Source of the DNA: a virus
Strand: one strand, 5' to 3'
IMG/VR virus record: IMGVR_UViG_3300029305_002985
Coordinates: 4,092-68,091 of that record
DNA: 64,000 bases
Positions 12,328 to 53,671 of the stretch are shown here, piece after piece. The notes beneath the pieces were generated by a model. That model was not told where the DNA came from. It did no database searches and was given only the letters and a program-made list of their open reading frames with translations. The translations under genes were made by a program, and so were the position numbers. The stretch's first letter is position 1, and the number at the start of each line of letters is the position of its first letter.

Positions 12328-13563
12328 TTACTTATTTCCTTTCGTTTTATTCAGTCCAAAATCTTTAGTCTGATACATATCAATATATGTTCTTTCTTTC
12401 TCATTTAAATCTGCGGCCGAGCATACTTCTAACACTTCAAAGGTAAAGTTCTCAATACCTTTTTCTCTTGTGAAAGCATAAAGCTGGCTGGTAACGGGCG
12501 TATCAATGCCAAGAGAACATTTGATATGCTCAATCCAACGATCTTTGATATTGCGGGCTTGGCCTACATAGGAAAGACCTGAGTCGATATGTGTAATTTT
12601 ATAGATGCCACACGCGCCAACTGCGCCCGCGCGATTAGCAAGATCATTTGCTCTATCGCGGTAGAAAGTAGACCAGATAAGCATACGCAAAGGTCTCGGC
12701 TCACGTAAATTATGCTCAATACTACGCAGATACGATATATCGGTTTTATCCGCTTCGCTAATCTGTAATGTGTAATATGTAGCATTTTCTTTGATTTGTT
12801 GTTCGCGGAGCTGCGCTTCTAATGCGGCAGCCTTGGTTGCACGGATTTTATCTAACTCTGCACGAGTTGCAGCTAGCTCTTTCTCTAAGTCTGTCTGTAA
12901 TGTAGCATATACCTCGGTCAGCCGCTTGGTAAGAGCTTCATGCTCTTTAATAATATCTTCTTTAGACGCGGCAAGCAGATCCTGTTGCTCTGCATAAACA
13001 GATTGAAGTTTCTTTTCTAGTTCATCATATTCTCGCTCTAGATTTTGCTCTTCTAGCTCGAGATTGTCTGCGTATTGCTCAAAGGCGTTACGCAGTATTT
13101 CCTTCTCTGACTCTTGCTTTTCGGCAATGGCAAGGTTGAGTTCGTTAAGGCGAGCAGTTGCCGCTTTTTGTTGACGCGCGACGGTTTCTTCAGTTTCCTT
13201 GAGTCGGATCATTGCATCATCTTGTTGTCGATTAATAACTTCAAGTTTTGCCTATTCACGCTCAAAAACTACTATTTGTTGATGACGGCTGTCTTTGAGT
13301 TTTTCTATTGCATCATTTAATTCATTTTCTGTAATTTGTTTAATTTGTATAGTTTTTTCTAATTGTGCGCTTTCTTGCAAAATTTTTGCTTGATTTTGAA
13401 GTAATTCAGAATTTCGTCTGTGAATTCCTTCTTGTTCTTGTAAAAGTTGCGCGTTCTAACGCTCGATCTCTGTGTCTAGTTGCTTTCTCTTGTGCCAGAT
13501 AAAGGCGGCAAAACCTAGACTGCCGCACGCCGCCAAGACACATAAAATACATACTATAATCAT
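12328..13563 (-). CDS. membrane-anchored coiled-coil protein with C-terminal GIY-YIG nuclease domain; two in-frame TAG codons (13252-13254, 13456-13458)
   Basis: N-terminal TM helix MIIVCILCVLAACGSLGFAAFIW, ~300 aa of heptad coiled coil continuous across both TAGs, C-terminal GIYKITHIDSGLSYVGQARNIKDRWIEH; ORF track truncates it at 13212. Confidence 0.65.
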
Positions 13564-13769
13564 TCGAGTTCCGCCATCATTTCTTTAAGAAGTTGTTTGA
13601 TACCATCAGCAGTCTCTCCATTTGGGAAGATACGAGTATAGTCTTCTTGATCCATTGCAATAGCCATACCATACCAACTATGGTCCTCTCCTAAATCAGG
13701 CAAATCTGGTATCTCATGAGGAAGGCTATCTGGGGTAATACCAATATATATATTTACTTCATATGTCAT
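13560..13769 (-). CDS. hypothetical protein
   Basis: 69-aa ORF. Confidence 0.45.
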   Translation of the reverse strand: MTYEVNIYIGITPDSLPHEIPDLPDLGEDHSWYGMAIAMDQEDYTRIFPNGETADGIKQLLKEMMAELE

Positions 13770-13787
13770 AACTATCTCCTTATAAAA

Positions 13788-13816
13788 AGAGGCTCGCTTT
13801 AATGTTGCGAGCCTCT
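13788..13816 (-). terminator. rho-independent terminator hairpin
   Basis: agaggctcgc-tttaatgtt-gcgagcctct followed by T-run on minus strand. Confidence 0.6.
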
Positions 13817-13835
13817 ACTAGTTGTTATGCGCTTA

Positions 13836-14081
13836 TTACTCAGCGTCGGGATTGAAAGCACGGCCTTCGTCAGTGAGGCGAACATACTTAACAGTGCCAC
13901 CAGTGATAGCAACTTCCTCGCGAGCCATGAGGCCCTTGCGCTGGAATGCGGAGGTAACAATGCCGTTTACCTGCTTGTCAGTAAGACCAGTTGCAGCAGC
14001 AATGTCCTTTGCAGTGAAGTCCTGGCCATCGTGAGCAACAACCCAATCATAAACGATTCTTGAATTTTCTTTGAGTGCCAT
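13836..14081 (-). CDS. small DNA-binding-like protein
   Basis: 81-aa ORF, HTH-like. Confidence 0.5.
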   Translation of the reverse strand: MALKENSRIVYDWVVAHDGQDFTAKDIAAATGLTDKQVNGIVTSAFQRKGLMAREEVAITGGTVKYVRLTDEGRAFNPDAE

Positions 14082-14148
14082 AATAAAATCTCCTTTAATA
14101 TAAATGAATTTTGTATCCGATGGCGCGTACCATCTTTCTTACATCTAT

Positions 14149-14177
14149 ATTATATTAAAAATTTTATTTAATGTCAA
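14149..14177 (-). promoter_or_regulatory. promoter (TTGACA/17/TATAAT)
   Basis: consensus hexamers on minus strand. Confidence 0.6.
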
Positions 14178-14377
14178 AGAAGTTCATTTGAGGCTATATA
14201 GTCTTCAAGCGCCATCATTTCTACCAGAGTTAATTTACTCACTAACTCCTCGATACGCGCTTCTGCGGCTTCTTTATTTTCGCCGCGTTTGATCTACTTC
14301 TCTAATGCTACGATTTCTTTTGCAATAGGCGCTAGGGTCTTCTTCATTGCGCGTCTATCTTCTCTATTCATTGCCAT
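14174..14377 (-). CDS. small hypothetical protein with one in-frame TAG (14294-14296)
   Basis: MAMNREDRRAMKKTLAPIAKEIVALEK[TAG]IKRGENKEAAEARIEELVSKLTLVEMMALEDYIASNELL; otherwise ORF-free gap. Confidence 0.35.
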
Positions 14378-51427: not shown

Positions 51428-51807
51428 TCGAAGCGGAAGTTATCCCACTGCCGTGCATAAGCAGGATTAACAATGAAAAACTCGGTAAACAAAATCTCCA
51501 AGAAGTTGGGGTTCTGCTTCTTCCAGTTCGCGCACATATGCTGAATAGTCATGCACTCGCACACCTCATACTCGCCCTCAACATCGCGCGGAATGTGAAG
51601 ATGCTTAGTTTCATAAGGTTTGATGGCAAGATGGTAAAGATCGGGCAAGAGGATGCACTTGGTATCCACATCGGAAGTCTCAAGGTCGCACTCATAGTTC
51701 TGCGAACCATAAAGAAACACACCGAGGACATTTTCCACGCCATAGTGCTGAATTGCGCGATTATAATGTGCGGCAACCCGTTTCATAATTCTTTCTTTTC
51801 TCTCCAT
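51283..51807 (-). CDS. nucleotidyltransferase-fold protein (N-terminal part; frame breaks near 51400-51430)
   Basis: NTase motif FLYGSQNYECDLETSDVDT; C-terminal helical continuation lies in another frame (51050-51427). Confidence 0.5.
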   Translation of the reverse strand: MERKERIMKRVAAHYNRAIQHYGVENVLGVFLYGSQNYECDLETSDVDTKCILLPDLYHLAIKPYETKHLHIPRDVEGEYEVCECMTIQHMCANWKKQNPNFLEILFTEFFIVNPAYARQWDNFRFEWRDTIFDRVFSLLRIRLFTPSNRTLWTAKRSAMVIVCCIYFVLLILA

Positions 51808-52081
51808 CTTTCATTCTCCTTATACAAACTCACCTACAAAATTATTGACCCACTCAAAGAGTTTCCACGAAAAGAAGCCAAAATTCACATCGTGGAATAC
51901 GCGGCAATCGGTTCTACCAGTGCGGCGCTCGGTGATTTGAAGCGCAACACTTAAGGCTCCACCGCTACCATCGGTAAATCGCTCCCAAAGAGCATCAGTT
52001 TGACGAATTTCAAAGTCGCCGCCTTTAAGTTTAAGAATAAAAGGGTCTGTTTGCAACTCTTTGTTCATTTCGCGGATAGTT

Positions 52082-52366
52082 TTATTCAGCGCCCTCTGTG
52101 CTTTCTTCCGCTTCGCGTTCTTCATGCGCCAACCTCCATTCTTGTAATTCATCAAAGGCTTCTGCCGTATAAAGTCCTTGCTCACACTCTGCGTTAAACA
52201 TCTCAAGAGAAAGATTATCAAAGTCAGGTCCATAAAGCGAAGCAAGACGCTCAACCGCATCTAAAGTAGTTTCACCCATGGTGATACCAACCTCATGGTG
52301 GATTGTTTCATCATACTCTTCCCAATAGGTAAGCGCATATTTATACATAAACATACTCTTTGCCAT
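52082..52366 (-). CDS. acidic hypothetical protein
   Basis: 94-aa ORF behind promoter copy. Confidence 0.45.
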   Translation of the reverse strand: MAKSMFMYKYALTYWEEYDETIHHEVGITMGETTLDAVERLASLYGPDFDNLSLEMFNAECEQGLYTAEAFDELQEWRLAHEEREAEESTEGAE

Positions 52367-52399
52367 CTGTTATTCTCTCTTTCTTTTGATTACATATAT

Positions 52400-52428
52400 A
52401 TTATATCATAAATTTTTGAAAATTTCAA
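52400..52428 (-). promoter_or_regulatory. conserved phage promoter module
   Basis: attata-17-tttcaa. Confidence 0.6.
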
Positions 52429-52763
52429 CGGCGTAGAAGCAAATAAGGTTTGATTTCCGCAATCTCACTTGCGTGCTTTTCATAGAGAACCTTGACATAA
52501 TCATAGAAGTCGCCGCTGTCTTTTACAGCAGAGGGCTTATCTTCGAAGATATACGCATAAAGCAAAGGCGTATCATGGGTAAGCAGATTTTCTCCGATAT
52601 TGGCGGGGTCAAGATCTGCGTTGACGGCTTCAAGGATATGATCAAAGCGTTCAAGGATTGGGCTATCTTCAGGCATCAAGCCCAGTTTCTCATATTGCGG
52701 ATAAAACTCGCGATAAAATGTTTTAAGTTCATCTACGAGCAGGGTAAAAACTTCTTTATTCAT
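52425..52763 (-). CDS. hypothetical protein
   Basis: 112-aa ORF. Confidence 0.5.
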   Translation of the reverse strand: MNKEVFTLLVDELKTFYREFYPQYEKLGLMPEDSPILERFDHILEAVNADLDPANIGENLLTHDTPLLYAYIFEDKPSAVKDSGDFYDYVKVLYEKHASEIAEIKPYLLLRR

Positions 52764-52783
52764 TGCGCGCCTGCCTTTCTTTT

Positions 52784-53671
52784 TTATAAGTCTGTTTCAT
52801 AGTACCAATAATAACCTTTAGAAAAATGCGTTCCTTTATTACCTTTTACGGCATCATAAATCGCGCCGCCCTACATATCTTTTGTCGCGGCAGCCGCACT
52901 CTCATATCTTTTTAATACATTTTTATTTTCATCAGTTTTACACACGATTTTTTTCTTTGAGTATTTACGAACATAGTCAAAATATTTTTCTTCAAATTCT
53001 TGATATGATAAATTTGAAAAATAAATGGATAAACCGTAAGTTTTATTATAGTTTTTTAAATTTGAAGCTAGTCTTGTTCTTACGCAATCTAATGATTTAC
53101 AATTTGTATAACCTTCTTCCAATAAAAAAACTGCACAGTCTTTCTCTGAAGAAAACTCTTTTTGTAATTCATAAATATATACAGATTTACTATTATAAGT
53201 GCCATAATTAGTATAATCAGTAGGAAGATTATTAAGAGCTAAGAGCTGCCGTAATTTATAGTCTGTTATTCCAAAATACTCACAAGTTTGCTATTGATTA
53301 TGACATTGATAATAATATTGAATAATATCTTCTGGATTGTCCAACATATAAACTTGAGAGTTGGTTTGTCCACCAGTTTTGATATTATAACCGTAGTTAT
53401 CTAATGTTGATTGATAATATTGGATCCAATATTTTTCTCGATTATCAAGATCCTAAGTCGTACAAACTTCAATTTCTTCAATAATGAAGTTATCTTCTCC
53501 ATATTTTCTAATTGCACGAGCAAGTTTATGATTAGATTTTCCAGTTCTGGCGTGGCTTAGATGCTAATTAAAACGGGTCTAAATAGGCTAAATTGTTTGC
53601 CCAATATAAACCTTATTATTAGCAAGACAAGTAATTTTATAAATAGAACCATTCATTATATTATTCATCAT
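52784..53671 (-). CDS. GIY-YIG homing endonuclease with six in-frame TAG codons, in an AT-rich island
   Basis: RBS AAGGAG + ATGATG; GSIYKITCLANNKVYIGQT, KYGEDNFIIEEIEVC, NYGYNIKTGG, C-terminal KGYYWYYETDL; 296 codons ending in TAA with six TAG and no TAA/TGA in frame. Confidence 0.6.

Follow-up and report, generated by a model that had tools for sequence, protein, structure and literature searches.

The 64,000-nucleotide stretch of viral DNA analyzed here (hereafter, the window) covers positions 4,092 to 68,091 of the IMG/VR record IMGVR_UViG_3300029305_002985, has a G+C content of 43%, and carries nearly all its genes on the minus strand. Six of these genes, designated a to f, are interrupted by in-frame TAG codons, and a tRNA with the matching CUA anticodon is encoded, also on the minus strand, at 22640-22736. 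We describe below the interrupted genes, the residue that TAG probably specifies, and an unusual hairpin in the variable arm of the tRNA that may bear on how it is charged.

Six genes interrupted only by TAG

A previous reading of the sequence alone had reported in-frame TAG codons in at least seven genes. All the positions that it quoted indeed correspond to CTA on the plus strand, that is, to in-frame TAG on the minus strand, but only six genes could be upheld, with 12 TAGs altogether, a seventh being neither listed there nor found by us. For comparison, relatives were gathered via GyrA, which yielded 24 IMG/VR loci (54-74% identity), mostly contigs of ~135 kb. Gene a (12328-13563, minus strand, as are all six genes), the start of which overlaps the stop of the upstream gene (ATGA), encodes a 411-residue protein combining transmembrane, coiled-coil, and GIY-YIG nuclease parts, with two TAGs at 13456 and 13252; its full-length orthologues in two of the relatives, L016 and L018, are free of TAA and TGA. 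Gene b (14174-14377), which has a Shine-Dalgarno sequence before its start, encodes a 67-residue protein with no function assigned, and its single TAG at 14294 was found in six assemblies. Gene c (16469-16876), whose start overlaps the gyrA stop, encodes a 135-residue membrane protein with one TAG at 16838, found in five assemblies, and offers no alternative start codon from that TAG to residue 46, a stretch that is conserved in relatives. Gene d (26541-27329), preceded by a strong Shine-Dalgarno sequence, encodes a 262-residue virion structural protein (phrog_2729) in which the PHROG match, over residues 1-83, runs across the TAG at 27201. Gene e (35531-36187) encodes a 218-residue protein with a tail-fibre/Mtd-type N-terminal domain located in its C-terminal half, and has one TAG at 35816. 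Finally, gene f (52784-53671) encodes a 295-residue protein resembling GIY-YIG homing endonucleases and, as had been claimed, contains six TAGs (at 53588, 53579, 53564, 53453, 53291, and 52871) and no TAA or TGA over its 295 sense codons, all six TAGs being present in eight assemblies. Since the G+C content of gene f is 28.7%, versus 43% for the window, it was probably acquired recently. In-frame TAA or TGA is likewise absent from the other five genes.

When TAG was treated as a sense codon, and ORFs (open reading frames) were assessed with a codon log-odds coding score trained on the 18 longest of them, five ORFs (six with gene a) were merged with a positive score on both sides of the codon. 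The same test merged no ORFs for TGA and a single case for TAA, which consists of two adjacent in-frame genes. In a curated set of 71 genes, totaling 15,165 codons, counting TAG against TAA and TGA revealed a strict division, with the interruptions in the six genes being only TAG and the genes terminating only with TAA (47) or TGA (24). The TAG trinucleotide itself is not rare, since these genes contain it 334 times in their two alternative frames. As a sense codon it appears 12 times, next to 270 CAA and 212 CAG, which amounts to 2.4% of the glutamine codons. No TAG terminators were found in 20 kb of flanking DNA, available from other assemblies, while in the more distant relatives L004 and L005, TAG makes up 5-6 of 16 stops. 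The nucleotide following each TAG is G in five cases, A in four, C in three, and U in none, in what is a small sample (n = 12).

Homology extends to both sides of the interruptions. In the closest relatives, the orthologues of the TAG genes are single ORFs, and every TAG open to this test is bridged by an uninterrupted orthologue or a PHROG match, while Shine-Dalgarno sequences or coupled ATGA starts lie ahead of the N-terminal pieces of the interrupted genes. Every TAG covered by independent JGI or ENA assemblies (10 of 12 sites, with 1-8 assemblies each) reads TAG and, because these assemblies agree, sequencing error is excluded for the ten; the two sites lacking such coverage are those at 27201 and 35816. 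ENA automatic gene calls already cross the TAGs in genes c, b, and f, for which they list products of 135, 67, and 294 residues, and the JGI gene calls on this phage leave genes split or truncated. Judged from the sequence, the in-frame TAGs are read-through codons rather than gene ends, because orthologues span them, TAG is never used as a terminator, and a tRNA(CUA) is encoded.

Two further TAGs were considered as evidence of a seventh gene, and both were rejected. The one at 48835 is the codon directly before the ATG of ORF 48430-48834. The other, at 51283, also considered as a terminator, ends ORF 51283-51807 (minus strand), which looks frameshifted: its tail before the TAG is of low complexity and non-coding in appearance, and the overlapping frame 51050-51427 continues plausibly. 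The region 51050-51807 (minus strand) may thus contain a frameshift, either programmed or marking a pseudogene; neither half has a Pfam match, and the TAG at 51283 is present in six of the eight assemblies checked. We also rejected the possibility that gene e is in fact two genes, with the TAG at 35816 a true stop followed by a restart at an internal Met, as this Met is not conserved among homologues and has no Shine-Dalgarno sequence, and four homologues are single ORFs with glutamine at the TAG column. No close relatives of genes d and e were returned from IMG/VR.

A phage tRNA(CUA) and the residue at TAG

The suppressor tRNA (22640-22736, minus strand), which the sequence-only reading overlooked, was identified by ARAGORN. 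It is 97 nt long, with the anticodon CUA at 22702-22704, and scores 55.5 bits against the Rfam tRNA model, relative to which its 27-nt variable region contains an insertion of 24 nt. Its D arm is of class-I type, both the D loop (AAUGGUA, with GG) and the T loop (TTCGAAT) are normal, and the CCA end is encoded. The exact 97-nt sequence was found in eight independent assemblies, and the closest relatives have a tRNA(CUA) at the syntenic position. A sigma-70-like promoter match, TGGACT-17-TATAAT, which agrees at 10 of 12 positions, lies at 22753-22781 on the same strand and ends 17 nt upstream of the tRNA. According to PMC9976931, the identity elements of Escherichia coli glutaminyl-tRNA synthetase (GlnRS) comprise a weak 1-72 pair, G73, G2-C71, G3-C70, G10, U35, and G36, and amber suppressors tend to be glutaminylated. 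Of this set, the suppressor tRNA possesses a mismatched A1.C72, G73, G2-C71, G10, and U35, and departs from it at the 3-70 pair, which is C-G, and at position 36, which is A. The tRNA thus resembles the E. coli supE-type tRNA-Gln(CUA), with which it shares the CUA anticodon, a weak or mismatched 1-72 pair, G2-C71, G10, G73, and U35, but supE is an ordinary 75-nt class-I tRNA, whereas the window tRNA has C-G at 3-70 and a 27-nt variable region that forms a stem-loop with CUG.

Homologue alignments place mostly glutamine at the TAG positions. The TAG of gene b aligns with Gln in L001 and L016 and with Met in L018; that of gene c with Gln in L001 and L016; that of gene d with Gln in the L001 orthologue and Thr in the homologue from the phage Phass-1; and that of gene e with Gln in four full-length homologues and Glu in one. 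For gene f, a standard-code orthologue (P0014, locus L093) reads GQTIQPIQRRFNQH and has CAA at three of the window TAG positions, the matching window segment being GQTI*PI*TRFN*H (asterisks denoting TAG). The converse is seen in the gene f homologue of L095, in which the glutamines of GQT, HNQ, and LRQ, encoded by CAA or CAG in the window, are TAG. Clade-wide, 55 TAG sites are informative, and glutamine predominates at 31 of them, with Glu (8 sites) and Lys (5) coming next. Phages with TAG-to-Gln recoding (code 15) are known, and this code was verified by metaproteomics in crAss-like phages, as described in PMC9523058, while PMC12636597 reports that 28 of 29 phage tRNA(CUA) inserted Gln in E. 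coli extract.

We infer, with a probability of about 0.85, that the phage reads TAG as a rare glutamine codon via its own tRNA(CUA). The tRNA would probably be transcribed from its own host-type promoter and would receive glutamine through the glutaminylation machinery of the host, as the identity elements and homologue alignments suggest. Once charged, it would compete with host release factor 1 at the 12 TAGs, which would allow genes a to f to be made at full length. Several points weigh against this scenario. The glutamine assignment, as well as the efficiency and timing of suppression, are read from sequence, and glutamine at orthologous sites is partly expected from mutation alone, since CAG to TAG is a single transition. 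Some aligned TAG sites hold other residues (Met, Leu, Thr, Glu, Ile). G73 combined with a long variable arm is equally a trait of the type recognized by seryl-tRNA synthetase, and the C-G pair at 3-70 stands where E. coli tRNA-Gln has G-C. Moreover, promoter-like sites near the suppressor tRNA are no more frequent than shuffled expectation, and the host may lack GlnRS, in which case charging would proceed via glutamyl-tRNA synthetase and GatCAB.

A rather unlikely alternative is that TAG still acts mainly as a stop, partial read-through serving as an attenuator or timer that restricts the amounts of nuclease and accessory proteins until the tRNA has built up. The very low density of TAG would fit such an arrangement, as would the clustering of TAGs in potentially toxic GIY-YIG nucleases, both in the window and in six relatives. 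The host presumably retains release factor 1, the scanned window proteins included no release factor or synthetase, and a timing role for recoded genes features in the proposals of Borges et al. (bioRxiv 10.1101/2021.08.26.457843). However, TAG positions vary between close relatives, which fits neutral drift better than tuned attenuators, and the six TAGs in gene f would leave almost no full-length protein unless suppression were efficient. The absence of TAG as a terminator is also what would be expected once this stop had become unreliable. In the end, leaky termination differs from decoding as glutamine only in efficiency, which sequence cannot tell. Decoding of TAG as another residue, be it serine or pyrrolysine, appears very improbable. 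It is the long variable region and G73 that bring serine to mind, pyrrolysine being the label ("Pyl") that ARAGORN attaches to the tRNA(CUA), and some orthologous residues are, as noted, not Gln. The label, however, was given to every CUA-anticodon tRNA found here and appears to be anticodon-based. Genuine tRNA-Pyl has a reduced D loop without GG, a 3-nt variable loop, and an elongated anticodon stem, and goes with pylS and pylBCD. Pyrrolysine was therefore rejected, the window tRNA having normal D and T loops and a 27-nt variable region, and the PHROG and Pfam scans of window proteins having returned no pyl-like match. We also rejected a class II (Ser) identity, since the D arm is of class I and Gln dominates the aligned positions, where Ser is almost never seen. 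The 7-nt anticodon-like loop and long unpaired flanks of the variable arm are furthermore unlike the window's own tRNA-Ser genes, and the near-uniform insertion of glutamine in the extract experiments cited above also speaks against both residues.

That the interrupted genes are pseudogenes, or their TAGs assembly errors, with no read-through at all, has hardly any chance of being correct. Decay is frequent among homing endonuclease genes, the composition of gene f is foreign, and the nearby ORF 51050-51807 looks frameshifted, but all 12 interruptions are TAG, with no TAA, TGA, or frameshift among them, and they are identical in all covering assemblies. Protein similarity that persists on either side of the TAGs, a cognate suppressor tRNA, the loss of TAG as a terminator, and the recurrence of the same pattern across the clade also argue against decay or error.

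A hairpin resembling an anticodon loop in the suppressor tRNA

What accounts for the 97-nt length of the suppressor tRNA is a hairpin in its variable arm (22673-22687, minus strand), with the stem CGCC/GGCG and the 7-nt loop CUCUGAA. In form, this loop corresponds to the anticodon loop of a tRNA-Gln(CUG), that is, Y32 U33 C34 U35 G36 A37 R38; the corresponding loop of the window's own tRNA-Gln(UUG), encoded at 41072-41145 (minus strand), is CUUUGAC. Like class II tRNAs (Ser, Leu, Tyr, Sec), the window tRNA has a stem-loop between its anticodon and T arms. Unlike them, it combines this with a class-I D arm, long unpaired flanks, and a conserved 7-nt YUCUGAR loop, whereas the variable-arm loop of class II tRNAs is 3-5 nt long and non-conserved, and these tRNAs decode Ser, Leu, or Tyr rather than, as predicted here, Gln.

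The same architecture, with different stems, was found in the tRNAs of L016 (5108-5206), L054 (2832-2926), and L061 (6908-6998). A hairpin tRNA is also encoded by Phass-1 (locus L217, 5995-6082), and ~20 more hairpin loci range from L097 to L216. We scanned IMG/VR with a pattern independent of the hairpin (CTCTAAA and GGTTCRANTCC, in this order and separated by 20-50 nt) and added the tRNAs found earlier, which gave 32 distinct phage tRNA(CUA) with a long variable region, 25 of them with a class-I D arm and the hairpin and seven of ordinary class II. Across the 25 hairpins, the five central loop positions are U in 20, C in 24, U in 25, G in 25, and A in 24. The two closing pairs are formed in all 25, with three pair types each, versus 36-47% when the partner column is shifted; the stems covary while the loop (YUCUGAR) is nearly invariant. 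One hairpin carries UUG, the other Gln anticodon. An equivalent pattern, beginning with CTTCAAA, was used for opal suppressors and gave seven long tRNA(UCA). Three of these are selenocysteine-like, and the other four (L233, L268, L292, and L321), which have G73 plus A1-U72 or G1.U72, display a variable-arm loop with UCCAA, which is the Trp anticodon loop.

Recognition by GlnRS and by tryptophanyl-tRNA synthetase is in both cases anticodon-dependent. It is conceivable, and we suggest this only tentatively, that the variable-arm hairpin copies, as a decoy, the anticodon loop specific to the inserted amino acid and so restores the identity element lost from the anticodon itself. On this possible but doubtful scheme, UCUGA on amber suppressors would stand in for the G36 of Gln, and UCCAA on opal suppressors for the C34 of Trp. 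In the window tRNA, the UCUGA of the hairpin would restore the G36 identity lost in CUA, and the host synthetase would consequently accept the tRNA. A structural consideration speaks against such a role: class I synthetases bind their tRNA with the variable region towards the solvent, so how the hairpin would come into contact with the domain of that enzyme molecule that binds the anticodon is not obvious. Pairing of the hairpin loop with the tRNA's own anticodon stem was also considered and dropped, since it works only in the window tRNA and not in those of L054 or L016.

We found no description of this hairpin in the open-access literature, where a prior description is nonetheless possible, and the term "variable arm" has 0 occurrences in the full text of the Phass-1 paper (PMC10607447), which does not mention the hairpin. 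If the decoy idea were true, the hairpin would be an undescribed tRNA identity device, which would explain how a phage can impose a code change without a synthetase of its own, with a standard-code host charging the suppressor efficiently. How host synthetases charge phage suppressor tRNAs is a question left open by Borges et al. (bioRxiv 10.1101/2021.08.26.457843). The pairing of a Gln-anticodon copy on amber with a Trp-anticodon copy on opal suppressors makes this question simple to test, and the hairpin could help the engineering of suppressor tRNAs. As a separate observation, a hairpin-bearing long tRNA(CUA) coexists with an ordinary tRNA(CUA) of 72-75 nt in L114, L138, L149, and L217 (Phass-1), the two genes being adjacent in L114, L149, and L217 and separated by ~430 nt in L138. 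A difference in role is possible between the two types, of which the 64 kb of the window contain the long one alone.

Nuclease genes, known recoded phages, and the genomic setting

The sequence-only reading had interpreted its TAG pattern as a stop-codon reassignment that depends on a phage suppressor tRNA and marks late genes. Reassignment is upheld, and so is the dependence on a suppressor tRNA, now that the tRNA(CUA) has been located, but the late-gene part fails in the window and its 10-kb flanks, outside which the structural module lies. Indeed, genes a, b, c, and f, which account for 10 of the 12 TAGs, are in the early/replication part of the genome, and only two of the six genes look structural, namely d, by its PHROG annotation as a virion protein, and e, by its tail-fibre-type domain. 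The statement that core replication and topoisomerase genes contain no TAG was correct, the codon being absent from the genes for ligase, GyrA, GyrB, helicase, primase, DnaB, RecJ, and Sak4. The bulk of the TAGs (8 of 12) are instead in the GIY-YIG nuclease genes a and f, and in gene f TAG accounts for 6 of 18 glutamine codons. Genes b and c are small accessory genes beside the ligase and gyrA genes.

The same bias is apparent in relatives. The orthologues of gene a in six of them carry 3-11 TAGs each, while core genes (Sak4, DnaB, RNase H, and ligase) occasionally have a single TAG and GyrA has none. Endonuclease-like ORFs that are inserted in the gyrB or ligase gene of relatives have 0-7 TAGs each, the highest counts being 5 in L001 (13955-14927) and 7 in L003 (9084-9984). 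The split gyrB and ligase genes themselves have almost no TAG, and those of the window are uninterrupted. In this phage, TAG is thus a rare general glutamine codon that is strongly enriched in nuclease genes and not a marker of late genes. What does not agree with such an enrichment is a third GIY-YIG gene of the window, at 21496-21975, which has no TAG. The nucleases are most likely made only where the suppressor tRNA is present and abundant, and suppressor-conditional translation has been argued for an intron endonuclease by Borges et al. (bioRxiv 10.1101/2021.08.26.457843). Alternatively, AT-rich mobile genes may gather CAG-to-TAG changes neutrally once suppression exists. In either case, finding TAGs mainly in selfish and potentially toxic nuclease genes, and not in late genes, bears on why recoding evolves. 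The ORFs that split gyrB or ligase in relatives, such as those at 8207-9020 in L016, 8748-9456 in L018, 7708-8419 in L003, and 8503-9256 in L024, also suggest insertion of the intron or intein type.

The window phage is a further, lightly recoded case of the known code-15 phages. Like those described by Borges et al. (bioRxiv 10.1101/2021.08.26.457843) and in PMC9523058, it has in-frame TAGs in conserved genes and aligned to Gln, a phage-encoded tRNA(CUA), and a depletion of TAG as a terminator, and it has no synthetase that was found, so that charging by the host is presumed. Its recoding is, unlike theirs, very sparse, with 12 TAGs in 64 kb. In contrast to the model of Borges et al., in which structural and lysis genes are concerned, its TAGs, within the part of the genome covered here, fall in the early/replication region, with GIY-YIG nucleases holding most of them; preferential recoding of a homing endonuclease is nevertheless something that the same authors report for TGA in Agate phages. 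The window fits the "intermediate" stage postulated in that preprint, at which TAG stops have been lost, a suppressor has been gained, and few sense TAGs are present. It is, accordingly, a clean example of very light recoding, and this lineage and its relatives are mis-called in annotation under the standard code.

Among known phages, the window phage is a distant relative of Phass-1 (OQ749652), a ~136-kb phage described in PMC10607447 as belonging to a "Caudoviricetes code 15 clade," with which it shares a large tRNA array and TAG-to-Gln recoding. No other GenBank phage proved to have a tRNA resembling the window suppressor, and the 88-nt Sup-CTA of Phass-1 carries the hairpin UUCC CUCUGAA GGGG. 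Phass-1 has homologues for 14 of 71 window proteins, at 24-41% identity, and the two phages share a helicase-RecJ-primase-Sak4 block as well as topoisomerase subunits encoded close to the suppressor tRNAs. Recoding is more extensive in Phass-1, for which PMC10607447 lists three suppressor tRNAs and 41 recoded ORFs, those for terminase, portal, and tape measure among them, as opposed to six recoded genes and one suppressor tRNA in the window. As the described members of Phassvirus share 82-86% nucleotide identity (PMC10607447), and the window has no nucleotide similarity to Phass-1 besides the tRNA, with proteins at the low identities given above, we rejected membership of this genus. There is no close relative among GenBank phages, in which GyrA is at most 41% identical.

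The window represents the early and replication part of the genome. PHROG and Pfam scans identified genes for a Dda-like helicase, RecJ, primase, DnaB, Sak4, NAD-dependent ligase, GyrA, GyrB, and RNase H, together with RNA-repair genes (polynucleotide kinase, phosphoesterase, and RNA ligase). A sigma factor, a DUF2828/DUF7788 protein, and numerous small genes without known function are also encoded. The same scans found no capsid, portal, or terminase module in the window plus 10 kb on each side, a region that does include nucleotide-metabolism genes. In other assemblies, the flank before coordinate 1 encodes DNA polymerase III alpha, NrdD, and dUTPase, and the one past coordinate 64000 has small PemK- and MazE-like genes.

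ARAGORN and Rfam identified a total of 31 tRNAs in the window, 30 of which form an array at 38366-50766 (minus strand), separate from the suppressor tRNA; the tRNA-Gln(UUG) mentioned above is one of its members. A tRNA-like gene at 45390-45464 (minus strand), which scores 45.6 bits with the Rfam tRNA model, was left with its anticodon unassigned by ARAGORN ("ga," with an irregular anticodon loop). The array is adjoined by the RNA-repair set, located at 24884-25962, 27592-28746, and 36733-38229 (minus strand), which consists of the phosphoesterase, the polynucleotide kinase, an RNA ligase of the T4 Rnl1 type, and the DUF2828/DUF7788 protein, labeled "RNA-binding" in PHROG. Such a set beside a tRNA array suggests a counter-measure against host anticodon nucleases.

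Two more features of the window stand apart from its recoding. An 835-residue protein encoded at 30732-33239 (minus strand) contains the shoulder and repeat domains of Major Vault Protein (Pfam E = 7e-20 and 1.5e-8), and its only homologues in GenBank phages, at 39% identity, are in the huge-phage records LR756500, LR756501, and LR756503; an SPFH/flotillin-like protein is encoded close to it, at 33964-35472 (minus strand). Lastly, a short block of plus-strand genes at 59634-61822 breaks the otherwise uniform minus-strand orientation and coincides with a reversed GC skew (+0.30 at 60-62 kb). This block includes the gene for a 279-residue protein with a weak RNase E-like PHROG match.

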